Positions 9,668-47,965 of a stretch of 64,000 bases of DNA are shown one piece after another. The translations under genes and the position numbers were made by a program. The notes below the pieces were generated by a model. That model searched no databases. It had not been told where the DNA came from and worked only from the letters and a program-made list of their open reading frames with translations. Position 1 is the stretch's first letter, and each line of letters starts with the position of its first letter. Source of the stretch: a virus (taxonomy: Duplodnaviria; Caudoviricetes). The stretch lies in IMG/VR virus record IMGVR_UViG_2630968332_000001, positions 32,001-96,000 of that record; one strand, written 5' to 3'.

Positions 9668-9731
9668 TTGACTTTTATTTTTTATATGGTATTATAATAT
9701 ATGTAAGTTAAGAGTTAAGAGAATAAACGAA
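9668..9731 (+). promoter_or_regulatory. Strong promoter of the RNA island with conserved leader motif
   Basis: TTGACT 9668-9673, TGgTATTATAAT 9687-9698, AGTTAAGAGTTAAGAGAATAAACGAA 9706-9731. Confidence 0.75.
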
Positions 9732-11004: not shown

Positions 11005-11079
11005 AGTCATGTGGTGTATTCGGGTAACACGCTCGTCCTTGAAACGAGAGCAGTAAGGTTCAAGTCCTTGCTATGACAT
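11005..11079 (+). tRNA. tRNA-Gln(TTG), slightly atypical
   Basis: D arm GTGT..GGTA.ACAC, anticodon arm CTCGT-CCTTGAA-ACGAG, T loop GGTTCAAGTCC. Confidence 0.7.
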
Positions 11080-11394: not shown

Positions 11395-11454
11395 CGCAAC
11401 GTAGCTCAACTGGTAGAGCAAAGGATGATGTGGGTTCGAGTCCCACCGTTGCAA
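11395..11454 (+). ncRNA. tRNA-like element lacking an anticodon arm
   Basis: Acceptor CGCAACG/CGTTGCA, canonical D arm TAGCTCAACTGGTAGAGC, only 10 nt before T arm GTGGG-TTCGAGT-CCCAC. Confidence 0.7.
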
Positions 11455-11500: not shown

Positions 11501-12757
11501 ATGAAGACAATGAGTGAGTTAAAATACCACTATGGCTTGAAGATGTGTATTCACCCTAGCACGAAGCAAAAGCAAATCATTAAGATGAACAGTGATGTAT
11601 CTAGGGCTGTATATAACGCTATGGTTGCGATTGATAAAGAGTTGTATCAACTCAAACAGGTAAAACTACCTATTGATACAATCCAAACACGTATTGCTGA
11701 ATTAGAAAAACGTAAGAAGGCTCAAAACTATTTAGCAACGCACTATACTTACATGAAACACCCTTATATTGATAGTCATTGTCGTTCTATGGCAATGCGT
11801 TCTTATAAAGCTGCATGGAATATGTTTAGAAAAGTTCATAACGTTGGTACACCTAATTTTCATAAGAAAACTTACGAGGAGAAGTATCAAACAAGTGGAA
11901 CTTATACGAGTAAGAAGAAACCAGTTAATATGTGGACTGGCTCAATTAGATTTGTAGACAATAAACATATTAATATTCCTAAGCTGGGTATTATTCGTGT
12001 GAGTGGTTCGTATAGAAAACTACTAGATAATAAAGATGATATTAGAATTGGCACAACTACTATTTCTAAAAATGCTTTTGGTATCTACTACGTTTCTATG
12101 CAGTTGGGTTCAGATACACCTTTTGTTAAAGAATTGCCTAAAACTAATTCTCAAGTTGGAATCGACTTGAATACAGATAACTTCTTAACAACAAGCGAAG
12201 GTAATGTTATAGCTAACCCGAGATTTTATAGAACTATCAAGGGTCGATTGGCTAAAGCACAACGTAAATTATCACGCAGACAAGTTAGAGCCAAGAAAGA
12301 AGGACGCTCCTTACGTGATAGCAAGAATTACCAAAAGCAACGCATAGTGGTATCAAAACTTATGAATAAAGTGCGTAATCAACGTAATAAATTCTTAGAT
12401 GAAATGTCAATAACACTTATCAAGAACCACGATTTGGTTGTGGCTGAAAATCTAAGAAGTAAAAATATGTTGAGAAATCACGCTTTGGCTATGTCTATTA
12501 GTGATGTAGGTTGGAGAACATTCCTACAAAAACTAGAATACAAAGCTGAATTATATGGTAAGACTTTTGTTACTGTAAATCCTAAGAATACTACACAAAC
12601 ATGTAGCGAATGTGGGCATGTTATGGGAACAAAAGATACGGATAAGCTAACACTAAAAGATAGAAGTTGGGCTTGTCCTAGCTGTAATACTTACCATATA
12701 CGTGATGTAAATGCAGCAAAGAATATCCTAGACAAAGGATTAAAACAATTAGCCTAG
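11501..12757 (+). CDS. tnpB: IS200/IS605-family RNA-guided endonuclease TnpB (solo, no tnpA)
   Basis: N-terminal HTH, RuvC-I GIDLN, RuvC-II VAENL, Zn finger CSEC..CPSC, RuvC-III RDVNAAKNI; catalytic D/E/D intact. Confidence 0.93.
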   Translation: MKTMSELKYHYGLKMCIHPSTKQKQIIKMNSDVSRAVYNAMVAIDKELYQLKQVKLPIDTIQTRIAELEKRKKAQNYLATHYTYMKHPYIDSHCRSMAMRSYKAAWNMFRKVHNVGTPNFHKKTYEEKYQTSGTYTSKKKPVNMWTGSIRFVDNKHINIPKLGIIRVSGSYRKLLDNKDDIRIGTTTISKNAFGIYYVSMQLGSDTPFVKELPKTNSQVGIDLNTDNFLTTSEGNVIANPRFYRTIKGRLAKAQRKLSRRQVRAKKEGRSLRDSKNYQKQRIVVSKLMNKVRNQRNKFLDEMSITLIKNHDLVVAENLRSKNMLRNHALAMSISDVGWRTFLQKLEYKAELYGKTFVTVNPKNTTQTCSECGHVMGTKDTDKLTLKDRSWACPSCNTYHIRDVNAAKNILDKGLKQLA

Positions 12758-12936
12758 AAATAGGTAGTCCGTTTGTCTGTTGCGGACTCAAAAGCATTTG
12801 GTAATTACCATGTAAGACCTTTATTTCAGATTTTTCTGATACAAAGGCAACGGTGTATCTAATGAAATTTTGGCAACCCTAAAAAATTAGGAGTTCCCAA
12901 AACCCTAGTACTGTGGGATTTGTTAGTCTGTTTTTA
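12755..12936 (+). ncRNA. omega-RNA/tracr-like scaffold of TnpB
   Basis: Directly 3' of tnpB; hairpin AGTCCGT-ttgtctgtt-GCGGACT; RE-like hairpin CAAAACCC..GGGATTTG. Confidence 0.65.
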
Positions 12937-12938
12937 GT

Positions 12939-13155
12939 GTGTTACCCATATGTGCGTGGGGACAGACTGGAATACGTACAAACGATATACTCAAACTCAA
13001 GGTGTTACCCACATACGTGTGGGGCAGACTACGGCAAGTTTTTTAAAGACAATGAAGAATATGTGTTACCCATATGTGCGTGGGGACAGACTATATGTAG
13101 TTAAGAGTTTAGCGAACAAACGAAAGTGCTACTCATATGTGTCAAAGAACATATA
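12939..13155 (+). CRISPR. CRISPR-like mini-array: 3 repeats plus 1 degenerate, 3 spacers
   Basis: GTGTTACCCATATGTGCGTGGGGACAGACT at 12939-12968 and 13063-13092 (identical), variant 13002-13030, degenerate from 13126; unique spacers of 33, 32 and 33 nt; repeat hairpin. Confidence 0.88.
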
Positions 13156-13612: not shown

Positions 13613-13616
13613 ATTT

Positions 13617-13706
13617 GGTAAGTTACTCAAGTTGGTGAAGAGGACTGTTTGCTAAACAGTTAGGTCTGCGATTGTGGACGCAAGGGTTCGAGTCCCTTAC
13701 TTACCG
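13617..13706 (+). tRNA. tRNA-Ser(GCT)
   Basis: GGTAAGT/ACTTACC acceptor, ACTGT-TTGCTAA-ACAGT, long variable arm, AAGGG-TTCGAGT-CCCTT, discriminator G. Confidence 0.92.
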
Positions 13707-14013
13707 TTAACAATTAAATATTAAAATTCGTGTGTATATAGGAACAAATCTGATTGTATTTATAATTTTGGTTTGTACAAACAAAAATCTTATAATATTT
13801 ATAATTATCTTATTGTTTTAGAACAAATTGCGACACCTCCTTTACTAAACCGCCCGCTTTTTGTCCTAACATGCAATTTTTAAAATAAAAGCCTGTGAGT
13901 GAAAGTAGCTACTGTTTTAAGCAAGTGCCCCGCTACTTAAATTTTTAAAAGTGAAATTTTAGCAAAACTAAAGCCAGATTTGTTCCTACATGCACACGAA
14001 TTAGAGAAAGAAG

Positions 14014-16699: not shown

Positions 16700-17257
16700 A
16701 TGGTTTACAATTCTAAACCACTTAGAACACAAGCCCAGATAGATGATGTGTTATTCTATTTAAGACGAACTCGTTATCCAGAACGTGATACATTCTTATT
16801 TTTGATTGGAATTAACACTGGGTTAAGATGTTCTGACATAGTGAAACTCAAAATAGGTACTTTAAGACATTCCAAGCGACCAGAAATCACAGAGAAGAAA
16901 ACTGGTAAAAAGAGAACGTTATTCCTAGACAATGTGCAAGATATTGTGCGTGATTATATCGAAGGCAAAGATGATAGTGAGTGGGCATTCCCATCTAGCT
17001 ATGATAAGAGCAAACATATAACGGTGCAGAATGTATATAAACTATTCAAACGAATTGATAATGAATTAGGTGGAATAGGTTTTACCACACACTCTATGAG
17101 AAGGACGTTCGGTTTGTGGTATTATCGTAAGACTAAAAACATATATTACTTGATGGAGTTGTTCAATCATTCCAGTCAAACCATCACCATGAGATATATC
17201 GGTCTTACGGAAGATGAGTTAGGGGACTCTTTAGAAGGGTTCAGAATAGGGTATTAA
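16700..17257 (+). CDS. Tyrosine recombinase (catalytic domain only)
   Basis: TGLRCSD, EKKTG, HSMRR, FNHSS, RYIG give the R-K-H-R-H-Y set. Confidence 0.9.
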   Translation: MVYNSKPLRTQAQIDDVLFYLRRTRYPERDTFLFLIGINTGLRCSDIVKLKIGTLRHSKRPEITEKKTGKKRTLFLDNVQDIVRDYIEGKDDSEWAFPSSYDKSKHITVQNVYKLFKRIDNELGGIGFTTHSMRRTFGLWYYRKTKNIYYLMELFNHSSQTITMRYIGLTEDELGDSLEGFRIGY

Positions 17258-28408: not shown

Positions 28409-29965
28409 CTGCTATATAAAATGTGGAATAATGTAGAACAATATTTATTAGTTCTACATTATTAGAAAGAAATATAGTTTTTCCTTTCCTAGATTTTATT
28501 TACTACCGTCAACAACAGTATTCCCATATCCTAATAAAAGGGTAATGACATTGACTGTCTCTGATAACCTAAGGGTGTAGCCCACCCCGTTGTATTTTTA
28601 TGCTACTAAATTCAATAAATTCATAACCGCATTTTCATCTCTATCCATAATCGAACCACATTCATAACAAATATATTCGTTATGTTTTGTTCCATGCTTA
28701 CGATTACCATTAAGACCAACTTTATCTTCGCCAGTCTTGATATATCCACATTCAGAACATCTTTGTGTGCTTGGATAATATTGGTCTGCTAAGACTATTT
28801 CCTTGCCATACCAGCCAGCTTTATAAACCAATACTTGTCTAAAAGTTCCAAATAATGACCTTTGTAAACCTTTAGAAGCAACGTGTGTCATCTGCATTTT
28901 CTTCACATCTAAATCTTCGATTACGATTTTGTCGTAATCACTTACTAATTTAGTTGTAAATTTATGAATAATATCATGTTGGATATTAGCCACTTTACGA
29001 TAATCACGTTGCAACTTGGCTCTCGTTTTAACGTAATTATTCGACTTAGTTGCTTTCTTTCCATTAACAACACGTTTTCTAGCTAACTGACGTTGGTAAT
29101 GTTTGATACGTTTATAGAGTTTCTTTAGATGATTAGGCAATGTATTAACTTTACCTTCGGTATAGTTAAAATGACCGACATTAATATCTACAGCTGTTTT
29201 CTTACCAGTTTTAGTTTTCTTGGTTATTTCAACTTCAAAAGGTAAACTAGCCCAATATTTACCGTTTTCACGATAAATTGATACAACTTTTAAATCACCA
29301 TCTAAACTCTTAGCGCCTTTAAAACTAATACCATACCAAGTTTTAACCCCACGAGGTTTATCAAGTCTTAACTTGCCATTAATAATCTTGGCTCTGTCAG
29401 TTTTAAAACCTTGTCTAGTAGCTTTCTTAGATTTAAATTTAGGTTTACCCCAGTCTGGCATAGCTTTATTAAAAAAGTTGCTCCATGCTTTACCTAAATC
29501 AGAAATCGCTAACTGTAAGCAACGAGGTGATAATTGATACTGCCAATCCTCTTTATTAGCTACTAACTCATCACGCACCTTGCGTTCGCTAGGTTTTAAC
29601 TTTTTATCATCTAAAATCAACGAACTATCATACATATCATTCCATAAAGCTAAGCCTTGATTCCAACAATATCTACGATAATCACATAAATCATCAAGAA
29701 CTTTCTTCATGGTTTTATTTGGATAAAGTCTTACCTTTTGCGTTCTAATCATATATATCACCACCTTGCTTCACAAAATTGATATAATAAATTTATCTTC
29801 TATATTATACTAACTTTAGAGAAGTAAGTCAAGATATATTCATGAAAAAATGAAGATGTTTTATGTTTTTGAATTCATTGTTTTTAAGCCTATTTCACAT
29901 TTTTACTCTTTCTAGTAGGCTCGTTGTTCTATATAGTTCTACATAATTCTATATTTTTGTTAACA
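28409..29965 (-). mobile_element. Non-autonomous IS607-family element (tnpB only); ends approximate
   Basis: TAGAA subterminal repeats at both ends (~29925-29955 and ~28430-28460); separates an SD and CTG from the MTase frame. Confidence 0.6.
28598..29764 (-). CDS. tnpB: IS607-type TnpB RNA-guided endonuclease
   Basis: MIRTQKVRLYPN, TAVDIN, VIEDLD, CSECG..CYECG, DRDENA; catalytic residues intact. Confidence 0.9.
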   Translation of the reverse strand: MVIYMIRTQKVRLYPNKTMKKVLDDLCDYRRYCWNQGLALWNDMYDSSLILDDKKLKPSERKVRDELVANKEDWQYQLSPRCLQLAISDLGKAWSNFFNKAMPDWGKPKFKSKKATRQGFKTDRAKIINGKLRLDKPRGVKTWYGISFKGAKSLDGDLKVVSIYRENGKYWASLPFEVEITKKTKTGKKTAVDINVGHFNYTEGKVNTLPNHLKKLYKRIKHYQRQLARKRVVNGKKATKSNNYVKTRAKLQRDYRKVANIQHDIIHKFTTKLVSDYDKIVIEDLDVKKMQMTHVASKGLQRSLFGTFRQVLVYKAGWYGKEIVLADQYYPSTQRCSECGYIKTGEDKVGLNGNRKHGTKHNEYICYECGSIMDRDENAVMNLLNLVA

Positions 29966-45595: not shown

Positions 45596-47965
45596 TTAGT
45601 ATTTATATGGTGCTGAGAAGAAGATAGCTTTCATTTTGCTACTTCCTCCCTCATCAATGATTGGCTTAATCGCACCATCTAACATCTTTGTTAAACCTTC
45701 GCCTGTGATAGTATATGGTATTCTTACTAAAAAGATGTCATTGTCATCACAGTATTGGTTTTTAATTTTGTCGTAATTGATACGTTCTTCAAACTTTTCA
45801 TCGCCACCCCAGTATTCCACTGATTTGAAATGCTGTTCACCATCATATTCGATAGCCATATTAGCAGATGGGATATAGAAATCGAACGGTAGTGGTTGTG
45901 CATTACCAACACAATCATTAAAAGTCTTTTGTGGTTCATAATCAATATTATGTTCAATCAGGTAATCTTCGATTTGAGCCTCACCACGCGACCTACCTTT
46001 TCTAACACAACGTGGACATTCTGTCCCGCCATTAACAAAATTGCTAGGACTCGTCTTCCATTCATAACCGCAAGTATTGTGCTTCATAAGAATAGGTGTA
46101 CTACTGTTCACATATTTACCTAGCACAGTATACTCATCACCTCGCAATGCCGCTACTTCATCTTTATATTGTTTTGTTGTCTTTTTAAACTTACCAAAAC
46201 AATGTGGACAACCAGTCCCATTTATTATATGCGACGGAGCCATCTTAAACTCTTTACCACATACGACATGTTTAAATAATGTTTTTTCCTGTGCTTTTAC
46301 ATATCTACCCAAAAGTATATACTCGTCACCACGTACTTTTTTCAATCTCTTTTCAAACTTTTCGGTAGTGATATTCTTGCCACCACCATGACATTCGGCA
46401 CACATACCACGTTTATGAAGAAATTGGTTAGGGGTTTTCGTATAGATAGTACCGCATGGATTGTGCTTATATTTAATTGGTACTCTTGCACCTTTGTATT
46501 CCTCCAAAAAAGTGTATTCATCTCCAACTAAATCATATACCTCTTTTAAAAACTCCTCGTTTGTTTTCGTGGCATTTTTAATATGACACTTTATACAACG
46601 TGAACCAGATTTAAATTGTGCTGGACGTGTTTTCCATATATAGCCACACTTGTTATGACGTACCCGAATAGATGTTGAGTAGTTAACATATGGGGCTAAG
46701 AATGTATATTCATCTCCAACCATGTCATATACTTCTTTTACCCATTCTTCATTAGTTTTGCCTCCACCTATTCTGCCCTTCTTCCATGAATGATAATTTC
46801 CAGTTCTTTTACCTCTACACTTTTTACAGCCTTTCCAATGTGAAAGATAATCGGCACGAACCGTAGTTACCTCACCACATGATAAATGTTTTATCTCTAA
46901 TTTTGTTTTTGCATTTTCGTATTCATTTAAGATTGTATAATCTTTACCATGAACTTCGTGTAATCTTTTTACTATTTGCTCGGTAGTCATTGAACGTGAT
47001 TTATCATAGCATTTTTTACATCTTTGTCCTTGAAGATAAAAGTTATTAGGCGATATTTTAAATTCATTACCACACTCATTATGTCGACATAGTATTGGGT
47101 GCTTACTATTAACATAATCTTCCAAAAAGACGTATTCGTCCCCAGCTACCTCTTTTACCCTTTTCGCCCACTCTTTATTGCTTATTTTACGACTATTTAT
47201 TTCGCATTGTGGACATCTAGTACCAGCTAAAAAATCATGCGGTGTAACACACCATTCATACCCACAAACACTATGTTTGCATTTCATTTTAACATTAGAC
47301 CTTGTATATGGTTCTGGGAATAAATACTCATCACCTGTAAGACTATGGTAATCTTTCTCCCATTGTTCCTGTGTTTTAAGCGTACCTTTGTTTTTAGCAC
47401 ATTTCTTACACCTTGTACCATACAAAAAGTTCTTTGGTTTAATTTTGTAAACATAACCACATTCGTTATGTCTAACCCTCATAGCTGTTTCACGATTTTG
47501 ATAAGTATCTAAAAAGGTATACTCATCGCCCACAAGATTAAATACATCTTCTTTCCACTGTTTATCACTTTTATTATGTCTTTCAGCTTTACAGATTGGA
47601 CATCTTTCGCCCTTCATAAAATCAATAGGCATAACATTAAACGTCTTACCACAAACAGTGTGTTCTGCGTGGATAGCAGTTTGATTATCAACGTAATCGC
47701 CAATGAAGTTATATTCATCAACGCTATTGAGTTTCTTTATACCTTTAAGCCACTCGCCATTATTTTTAAACGTTCTATACTTACCACACTTTAAACACGA
47801 ATTTCTGCGCATAAATTGTTTAGGTGTTATTAGATAGGTTTCGTTACAAACATTATGTTTAATTCTTAATTTTGTATAATTATTTTCATACTCATCAAGA
47901 ACCTCATATTCGTCACCATATCTCTCTTTAACTCTATCTTCAAAATTGTTTCTTCTCAAATACAT
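45596..47965 (-). CDS. Multi-Zn-ribbon repeat protein with C-terminal Vsr/DUF559-like endonuclease (homing endonuclease-like)
   Basis: Ten ~64-aa repeats GDEY..H..CG..P..F..G..CxxC; SRGE..PFDFYI..IEYDGEQHF..D..KN. Confidence 0.8.
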   Translation of the reverse strand: MYLRRNNFEDRVKERYGDEYEVLDEYENNYTKLRIKHNVCNETYLITPKQFMRRNSCLKCGKYRTFKNNGEWLKGIKKLNSVDEYNFIGDYVDNQTAIHAEHTVCGKTFNVMPIDFMKGERCPICKAERHNKSDKQWKEDVFNLVGDEYTFLDTYQNRETAMRVRHNECGYVYKIKPKNFLYGTRCKKCAKNKGTLKTQEQWEKDYHSLTGDEYLFPEPYTRSNVKMKCKHSVCGYEWCVTPHDFLAGTRCPQCEINSRKISNKEWAKRVKEVAGDEYVFLEDYVNSKHPILCRHNECGNEFKISPNNFYLQGQRCKKCYDKSRSMTTEQIVKRLHEVHGKDYTILNEYENAKTKLEIKHLSCGEVTTVRADYLSHWKGCKKCRGKRTGNYHSWKKGRIGGGKTNEEWVKEVYDMVGDEYTFLAPYVNYSTSIRVRHNKCGYIWKTRPAQFKSGSRCIKCHIKNATKTNEEFLKEVYDLVGDEYTFLEEYKGARVPIKYKHNPCGTIYTKTPNQFLHKRGMCAECHGGGKNITTEKFEKRLKKVRGDEYILLGRYVKAQEKTLFKHVVCGKEFKMAPSHIINGTGCPHCFGKFKKTTKQYKDEVAALRGDEYTVLGKYVNSSTPILMKHNTCGYEWKTSPSNFVNGGTECPRCVRKGRSRGEAQIEDYLIEHNIDYEPQKTFNDCVGNAQPLPFDFYIPSANMAIEYDGEQHFKSVEYWGGDEKFEERINYDKIKNQYCDDNDIFLVRIPYTITGEGLTKMLDGAIKPIIDEGGSSKMKAIFFSAPYKY

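Follow-up and report, generated by a model that had tools for sequence, protein, structure and literature searches.

The 64,000-nucleotide stretch of DNA analyzed here (hereafter the window; bases 32001-96000 of the 129,218-bp virus record IMGVR_UViG_2630968332_000001, which is rated complete) carries a gut-phage gene for a TnpB that stands without a transposase and is followed by a scaffold and a short CRISPR array. We consider it likely that a minimal type V-like CRISPR system, of the kind described under the names TranC and V-U, has this TnpB as its effector, and that the type I-E system of the host adds its spacers. In the scheme that we propose, tnpB, scaffold and array, which form one conserved module, are probably transcribed together, and new spacers would most likely be inserted at its TnpB-proximal end by the I-E Cas1-Cas2 of the host, because the phage itself encodes no adaptation genes. 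The tail of the repeat (ACAGACT), which is complementary to the hairpin loop GTCTGT, would form a pseudoknot with the scaffold; each repeat would thereby supply the strand that precedes the guide in an ordinary TnpB omega-RNA. The following ~16-20 nucleotides of spacer would act as the guide, and TnpB would cut spacer-matched DNA beside a transposon-associated motif (TAM), possibly ...AAT. The scheme is weakest where it comes to the likely use of the system, in conflicts of the phage with its siblings or with other mobile elements. The observation goes beyond chance because the module recurs with different spacers in close relatives and because loop and tail covary in relatives that lack an array. 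The module comprises the following elements, in window coordinates:

11501-12757, plus strand: tnpB, an open reading frame (ORF) of 418 amino acids with intact RuvC and zinc-finger motifs
12758-12919, plus strand: omega-RNA-type (tracr-like) scaffold of ~160 nucleotides, which may start inside the 3' end of tnpB
12766-12788, plus strand: first scaffold hairpin, with arms AGTCCGT (12766-12772) and GCGGACT (12782-12788) and the loop GTCTGT (12775-12780), which is the proposed pseudoknot strand
12903-12917, plus strand: terminal scaffold hairpin CCC...GGG, repeat-like
12920-12938, plus strand: mini-leader of 19 nucleotides, with TTTTAGT (12932-12938) abutting repeat 1
12925-12936, plus strand: the block AGTCTGTTTTTA
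12939-12968, plus strand: repeat 1, 30 nucleotides, tail ACAGACT
12969-13001, plus strand: spacer 1, 33 nucleotides, translating to GIRTNDILKLK, no DNA match found
13002-13030, plus strand: repeat 2, 29 nucleotides, compensated stem CCCACA/TGTGGG, tail GCAGACT
13031-13062, plus strand: spacer 2, 32 nucleotides, no match found
13063-13092, plus strand: repeat 3, 30 nucleotides, same as repeat 1
13093-13125, plus strand: spacer 3, 33 nucleotides, matching a promoter-leader site in sibling phages
13126-13155, plus strand: degenerate terminal repeat (trailer end)

Conservation of the module among close phage relatives

The TnpB is recovered by the Pfam profiles Cas12f1-like_TNB (2.2e-25), OrfB_IS605 (1.7e-16) and HTH_OrfB_IS605 (1.1e-5). 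Its alignment with proteins of solved structure places acidic residues in GIDLN, AENL and RDVNAA, along with two CxxC pairs, which we take to be the RuvC D-E-D triad and the zinc finger, respectively. The closest solved structures are an artificial-intelligence-designed nuclease and the ISDra2 TnpB; structures 8bf8 and 8h1j of the latter align to residues 17-413 (E = 1.3e-35), whereas LaTranC (PDB 9jfo/9jfq) aligns only to the C-terminal third, residues 282-411 (E = 4.9e-23). An earlier note on this DNA, made from the sequence alone, had described an intact TnpB with neither tnpA nor a left end, and this is borne out: the Y1_Tnp profile has no match across the 129-kb phage genome, and no left end was found 5' of tnpB, where a tRNA-like element stands instead (11395-11454, plus strand; 46.1 bits with the Rfam tRNA model, no call by ARAGORN), 46 nucleotides upstream of the gene. 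The absence of cas genes reported in the same note holds for Cas1 and Cas6e, whose profiles have no match in any of four whole phage genomes (the window phage and three relatives), other cas families not having been searched. Every position that it gave, among them those of the hairpin arms, the loop and the 12925-12936 block, is correct in the sequence, as is the order of scaffold and array.

The scaffold folds with a z-score of -2.7, and in a MAFFT alignment (A1) it shows the blocks TTGGTAATTA, GTAAGACC, GTATCT, AAATTGTGG and CTCACAAG of the right-end RNAs of its relatives. Repeats 1 and 3 are identical across 31 nucleotides, and the changes between repeat stems are compensatory, the variants being CCCATA/CGTGGG, CCCACA/TGTGGG and CCCATG/CATGGG. 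Scaffold and array are present in all six loci whose TnpB is at least 92% identical, namely the window and five loci (L001, L002, L003, L097 and L098; 92-98% identity) obtained by protein searches of IMG/VR and metagenomes, with L097 being cut by the contig end after repeat 1 and L098 having no more than two repeats, both degenerate. A DNA contig of 6183 nucleotides (run X1), with 96.5% identity across tnpB and the scaffold, shows the same arrangement with other spacers, and a 281-nucleotide contig from an animal-gut metatranscriptome (X16) contains the last 50 nucleotides of tnpB, the scaffold, repeat 1 and 18 nucleotides of a different spacer, a hint that the end of tnpB, the scaffold and repeat 1 are present as one RNA. 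Most of the stretch is without coverage in the RNA runs X15 and X16, which is uninformative. Together these loci hold 20 distinct spacers (three in the window, three in L001, five in L002, four in L003, one each in L097 and L098, two in X1 and one in X16), none of which is common to two loci. Given that the window and L002 arrays have the degenerate last repeat in common, the trailer is the far end of the array and turnover takes place at the TnpB side.

L003 and L098 lie in a phage type of 180 kb, where both flanks are unlike those of the window; homology with the window begins ~20 nucleotides before the ATG, with a different tRNA-like element upstream, and stops with the array. It is therefore the module, and not its neighbourhood, that is conserved. 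Among the six orthologues the pairwise ratio of nonsynonymous to synonymous substitution rates (dN/dS) of tnpB is 0.04-0.09 at a dS of 0.20-0.66, and the scaffold, with 1-11 differences in 158 nucleotides, is far more conserved than synonymous sites; in one scaffold stem of L003 and L098 a G:C pair is replaced by A:U, which is a double change. Thus, both the protein and the RNA are maintained. L003 differs from the window in its junction: the element that forms the terminal scaffold hairpin continues there as ...GGGATAGACT, where the scaffold ends, and a 32-nucleotide spacer comes next, ahead of the first full repeat. The final 29 scaffold nucleotides of L003 match its own repeat (none of 20000 shuffles was as good), and the block corresponding to 12925-12936 is missing.

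Several irregularities were seen in these loci. The last repeat of L001 is fused to the 3' end of a tRNA-Ser (L001:4623-4700), with ~0.55 kb of the DNA present in the window deleted. In L003 (4576-4691) a full repeat is followed at once, without a spacer, by a 5'-truncated repeat, and then by a 35-nucleotide spacer and a degenerate repeat. The 180-kb phage of L003 encodes a further TnpB of this family, which lacks an array and has a canonical right end (L182), and two Y1 tnpA genes are found elsewhere in this 180-kb relative (G405:111690-112052 and 138746-139111).

Proposed rewiring of the pseudoknot and type I-E kinship of the array

Next to the clade with arrays come relatives of this TnpB at 59-74% identity; in all cases inspected they are ordinary mobile copies of IS200/IS605 elements from Lactobacillaceae, and among those with a name Ligilactobacillus agilis (68%) and Ligilactobacillus salivarius (66%) have the nearest. 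These insertion sequence (IS) copies occur several per genome, mostly with a divergent Y1 tnpA, and have the end ...GTTGAC, beyond which the flanks, dozens of them, are unrelated. None of the traits of such mobile elements, i.e. a Y1 tnpA, a left-end hairpin, an unrelated right flank and several copies, is seen in the window module. A k-mer scan of 175 loci detected same-strand arrays of period 61 behind tnpB only in the clade of at least 92% identity, and a tree computed with a quick method, without L059 and L077, places this clade (support 96-100) inside the array-less TnpBs. On a 76-kb metagenome contig, an array-less IS copy of 59% identity (L138:3926-4260) lies 24 nucleotides from a reverse-oriented type I-E-like array; it is an example of the raw material for fusions between TnpBs and I-E arrays.

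According to a passage of a review, the 3' end of prokaryotic omega-RNAs pseudoknots with the scaffold (PMC13565253). The array-less relatives agree with this: their first hairpin loop contributes five bases, which pair with the five that lie two nucleotides before the element end. We counted these pairs with a script of our own because alignment A1 left the phage tails out of register. Among 42 unique array-less omega-RNAs the loop and tail are CAACC:GGTTG in 28, CAACT:AGTTG, a two-sided change, in four, and CAGCT:AGTTG in two; three further ones show single changes with the pairing kept by G-U. Altogether loop and tail are fully paired in 37 of the 42, and in the five non-pairing cases the regular expression had taken the loop from an extra upstream hairpin. 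In a 50%-identity Limosilactobacillus subfamily (L053-L057 and L152-L166) most copies have the loop AAACT and the tail AGCTT, with one central mismatch, and one of them (L055) has the tail AGTTT, a perfect match to the loop. The array clade has the loop GTCTGT, and its complement, ACAGAC, ATAGAC or GCAGAC, ends every repeat one base before the spacer; no partner of the loop was found at the window-type scaffold's own end. The array-less homologues are thus without the GTCTGT loop, the presence of which in them had been set beforehand in the earlier note as refuting its proposal, and carry CAACC or CAACT matched to their own tails. The proposal itself, that the scaffold has been adapted to load guides from the array, is supported by this evidence, which is comparative.

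The 29-30-nucleotide palindromic repeats, the 32-33-nucleotide spacers and the period of 61 nucleotides constitute a type I-E format. Cas6e was detected in three of 33 Ligilactobacillus genomes, and two I-E arrays from this genus (L190 and L191), with a period of about 61 nucleotides (61-62), were compared with that of the phage. Set against the L191 repeat, repeat 2 is identical at 22 positions, which none of 20000 shuffles equalled, and repeat 1 at 19, which 11 of 20000 equalled. The motif TTTTAGT abuts the first repeat in both Ligilactobacillus arrays compared as well as in all five window-type phage loci, against a background of 25 matches in 2 x 64 kb. The last seven nucleotides of the repeat, which occupy the position of the I-E handle, differ: ACAGACT in the phage versus GTGATCC or GTAATCC in the hosts. 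The phage repeat pattern was found in none of 401 Lactobacillaceae genomes searched, which are a sample of the family, and in IMG/VR it occurs as arrays only in three sibling phages; four single matches to the repeat core in that database (L091, L092, L094 and L096) proved to be chance matches in unrelated DNA.

From these sequence comparisons we infer that the array probably had a host I-E array as its source or its model, that it appears to keep the junction that the host Cas1-Cas2 would need, and that its handle was apparently exchanged for a strand fitting the TnpB scaffold. Since the repeat body is I-E-derived, I-E adaptation of the host probably builds the array. Host Cascade depends on the sequence of the repeat handle, and the replacement of that handle argues against use of the array by Cascade. 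The alternative raised in the earlier note, that host I-E machinery builds or uses the array, accordingly divides: the building part is favoured by the I-E-derived repeat body and the use by Cascade is not. The second block of that note (12925-12936), for which a pairing with the repeat end had been suggested, is better read as part of an I-E mini-leader. As an anti-repeat it was rejected, with the TTTTAGT junction being as in host arrays and the block missing from L003. The repeat was also considered as a duplicated omega-RNA end, an idea weakened by the I-E-like repeat body, in spite of the scaffold end of L003 being homologous to the repeat. For the terminal 29 nucleotides of an array-less relative, 4546 of 20000 shuffles resembled the repeat equally well, so that no similarity is detectable there, and capture of, or fusion with, an I-E array would fit the repeat better than duplication of an omega-RNA end.

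Spacer targets and competing explanations

Spacer 3 matches, at 29 of 32 positions and with its first 17 nucleotides identical, a site in L001, L002 and L097 that is also on the X1 contig. A -35/-10 promoter immediately precedes the site, which is ~1.8 kb upstream of tnpB and has the 5' flank ...GGTATTATAAT. The phage has a copy of its own:

9699-9731 (G000:41699), plus strand: the phage's own copy of the spacer-3 site, in which a 1-nucleotide insertion after nucleotide 7 breaks the match

A promoter-leader motif resembling spacer 3 (...TATAAT ATATGTA.GTTAAGAG...) is found at 9699-9731, at four further places of the genome (G000:8313, 24901, 66946 and 112738) and in siblings. The last spacer of L002 matches, at 30 of 32 positions with a gap, a tRNA-like element ~0.3 kb upstream of tnpB in the phage of L001. 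On the 5' side, ...TTATAAT adjoins the first of these sites and ...ATAAAAT the second. Among array-less relatives, TTTAATGA(T/G)A is common to the left-end flanks in five of five insertions and TTCAAT(G/T)AT in four of four, the boundary between TAM and element not being fixed; the resemblance of the two protospacer flanks to them is only suggestive. Beyond these two imperfect matches the spacers match nothing in the four whole phage genomes. Four arrays compared with GenBank phages gave no credible match (all E >= 0.07), three 24-nucleotide spacer stretches were found in IMG/VR only in their own arrays, and the window array has no match in the 33 Ligilactobacillus genomes. The frame-1 translation of spacer 1 (GIRTNDILKLK) is identical at 7 of 11 positions to GLRCSDIVKLK of a 185-residue ORF (16700-17257, plus strand) with a tyrosine-recombinase-like TGLRCSDIVKLK motif.

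With a DNA polymerase that shares no more than 37-38% identity with those of Bacillus and Clostridioides phages, the lineage of the window phage is not represented in GenBank; in a megablast of the locus against GenBank phages the sole match is a piece of tRNA-Ser. The module stands within a cluster of tRNA and tRNA-like elements, comprising a tRNA-Gln (11006-11078), the 60-nucleotide tRNA-like element detected by Rfam only (11395-11454) and a tRNA-Ser (13616-13707). A promoter scan gave no plus-strand site near the array (four sites found, 7.6 expected). The only other TnpB of the genome is a TnpB-like ORF of 388 residues (28598-29764, minus strand), 28% identical to the first, with no direct or inverted repeats within 1.1 kb behind it. 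A 789-residue protein (45596-47965, minus strand), the best phage matches of which are annotated as homing or HNH endonucleases (from PBS1, Lactococcus and Enterococcus phages), has many partial match places per genome.

An improbable account of the locus is that it is an ordinary virus-borne mini-array run wholly by the host I-E system (Cas6e, Cascade-Cas3 and Cas1-Cas2), the TnpB being a domesticated or selfish neighbour. Mini-arrays of viruses that depend on host Cas proteins are known, having reportedly been described in 2019 by Medvedeva and by Faure, and the 29/32-nucleotide format, the 61-nucleotide period and the likeness of repeat body and leader junction to Ligilactobacillus I-E arrays are all that such an account would lead one to expect. 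It leaves unexplained, however, why the 7-nucleotide tail, the would-be 5' handle of Cascade, is unlike both host repeats at most positions and instead complements the loop of the TnpB scaffold, a loop that changed only in the array clade. It also sits poorly with the absence of the repeat pattern from the Lactobacillaceae genomes searched, with the intactness of the module across two genomic contexts, and with the window-type scaffold having lost its own tail and guide while tnpB stays under strong purifying selection. Also unlikely, in our estimate, is a homing-type nuclease with one cis guide only, made of the scaffold, the first repeat tail and the first spacer (in L003, its own tail and the spacer that precedes the first full repeat), in which case host Cas1-Cas2, by acting on an I-E-like sequence, would have made the remaining array as a by-product. 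The complete omega-RNA-like end of L003 followed by a 32-nucleotide guide, and the X16 contig spanning scaffold, repeat 1 and 18 nucleotides of spacer in one piece, would suit such a nuclease, as would the fact that the places to which both matching spacers point are, in a sibling phage, within 2 kb of tnpB on its upstream side. Yet both of these spacers are the last in their arrays rather than the first, and every repeat keeps the compensated stem and the ACAGAC tail, which suggests selection on all units. That the module is decaying or non-functional, or that the TnpB is a nuclease-dead regulator of the TldR type, we regard as very improbable: the degenerate repeats and mismatched loop of L098, as well as the deletion that joins the last L001 repeat to a tRNA remnant, point in that direction, but they have to be set against the low dN/dS of tnpB, the presence of the D-E-D and zinc-finger motifs, the highly conserved scaffold and the full turnover of spacers between loci.

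Our preferred explanation, a TnpB effector guided by the array, must itself answer to several observations that weigh against it. Only two of the 20 spacers match anything, both imperfectly. In minimum free energy folds the overall architectures of the phage and array-less scaffolds are alike, but the first phage hairpin as drawn is not reproduced. The pseudoknot in the array clade rests on a single lineage-level event, and in L098 the loop reads GTCCGT, a variant that introduces one mismatch. The comparison of contexts covers the tiers of at least 92% and at most 74% identity, with P0005-P0008 (80-85%) left out. The X16 contig gives neither ends nor strand, and a metatranscriptome library may hold DNA. 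Finally, with Cas6e in only three of 33 Ligilactobacillus genomes, host adaptation may often be unavailable.

Relation to known TnpB-array systems and significance

The window locus is a new, independent member of an already published kind and not its first example. It shows three traits of TranC and V-U systems, namely the nuclease motifs of TnpB-family RuvC domains, conserved linkage to a downstream array and loss of the transposon context; no new category is needed because TranC, V-U and Cas12r already establish the principle. The comparisons that follow refer to excerpts of the papers cited. TranCs are intermediates between transposons and CRISPR systems (Jin et al., Cell 2025, as presented in PMC13565253, PMC13639567 and bioRxiv 10.64898/2026.03.27.714800). 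As described there, they likewise have a transposase-less effector of the TnpB lineage with an array downstream, and their omega-RNA or right-end element RNA (reRNA) is split into a scaffold part and a repeat-guide part. The window TnpB appears to be on another branch, as reflected by the C-terminally confined LaTranC match beside the nearly full-length one of ISDra2, and its array can be shown to have the I-E format, with a leader junction of the I-E kind. Its repeats of 29 nucleotides also differ from those of 32-38 bp given for TranC clades 3, 9, 11 and 20 (bioRxiv 10.64898/2026.03.27.714800). In the same source CauTranC9 is likewise an unexpanded TnpB-like protein encoded by Caudoviricetes with a short array, and it targets phages; going by its description, its 38-bp repeats set it apart from the 29-nucleotide ones of the window.

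A system with a similar array is Cas12r-CRISPR of the Thermus Lalka phages, for which degenerate 29-bp I-E-like repeats are reported and adaptation by the host I-E system is proposed (bioRxiv 10.64898/2026.04.20.719267). According to its description it is also phage-encoded and without adaptation genes, has spacers of 31-33 nucleotides that enter beside the effector gene, and is assigned a role in conflict between mobile elements. It differs in its host phylum and TnpB branch. By the same description, Cas12r is a protein of 564 residues that works with CRISPR RNA (crRNA) alone, with no trans-activating crRNA (tracrRNA), whereas the window TnpB has 418 residues and a constrained scaffold of ~160 nucleotides; the conservation of this scaffold argues for a tracr-like requirement. 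The excerpts also note that the array of a myxophage V-M system was aligned to the I-E repeat of its host. Under the names V-U6 to V-U45, Altae-Tran et al. (PNAS 2023, PMC10691335) catalogued clades of TnpB that have an array downstream but lack other cas genes, with about 40-50 independent origins of such TnpB-array associations inferred (PMC10691335; 2025 CRISPR-Cas classification, PMC12669027, the latter with about 50) and with either duplication of the omega-RNA or insertion near an existing array proposed as their source (PMC10691335, PMC12669027). These accounts are at the level of a catalogue, and an I-E leader junction and a rewired pseudoknot do not figure in the passages compared. 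From the mobile TnpBs of the ISDra2 type (PDB 8bf8, 8exa and 8h1j), with which it shares architecture, size, the kind of scaffold and the logic of loop-to-tail pairing, the window TnpB differs in having no tnpA, left end or flank-derived guide, in being present as a single copy and in taking its guides from an array.

The value of the locus lies in a TnpB-sized effector that is 66-70% identical to live IS copies, in its two architectures, in the clear I-E junction and in the rewired pseudoknot. With its unexpanded protein of 418 residues it is a compact natural test case for the passage from transposon nuclease to CRISPR effector. Sister phages keep two stages of it, one with the scaffold fused to a guide and the other with scaffold, leader and array, and the rewired 6-bp pairing of loop and tail is a single mutable contact that is open to compensatory mutation. 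A nuclease of TnpB size that took multiplexed guides from an array would have practical interest as well.

As a tentative extension, which we regard as possible rather than probable, the I-E repeat, with its GC stem-loop, tail of 7-8 nucleotides and guide, might be a ready-made structural substitute for a TnpB omega-RNA's 3' end; this would explain the repeated capture of I-E arrays by phage TnpBs. The kept leader junction and repeat body would let host Cas1-Cas2 still service the array, and perhaps host Cas6e also does so, by cutting between hairpin and tail. Handle and loop would have co-evolved to a private 6-bp pseudoknot, such that the guides serve the phage TnpB only and not Cascade. Between co-infecting phages the system may act as a drive with multiple guides, for homing or for exclusion, as the trailer spacers point at sites no more than 2 kb from the cassette in siblings while the phages' own copies carry indels. 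Should this extension be true, the window and L003 would preserve, with IS relatives at 66-70% identity, a fused form (L003) and a form with a leader (window), among the shortest traceable steps from TnpB to CRISPR. If, as in our preferred explanation, the host I-E system indeed feeds the phage TnpB, the locus would be another case of a phage outsourcing the capture of its spacers.

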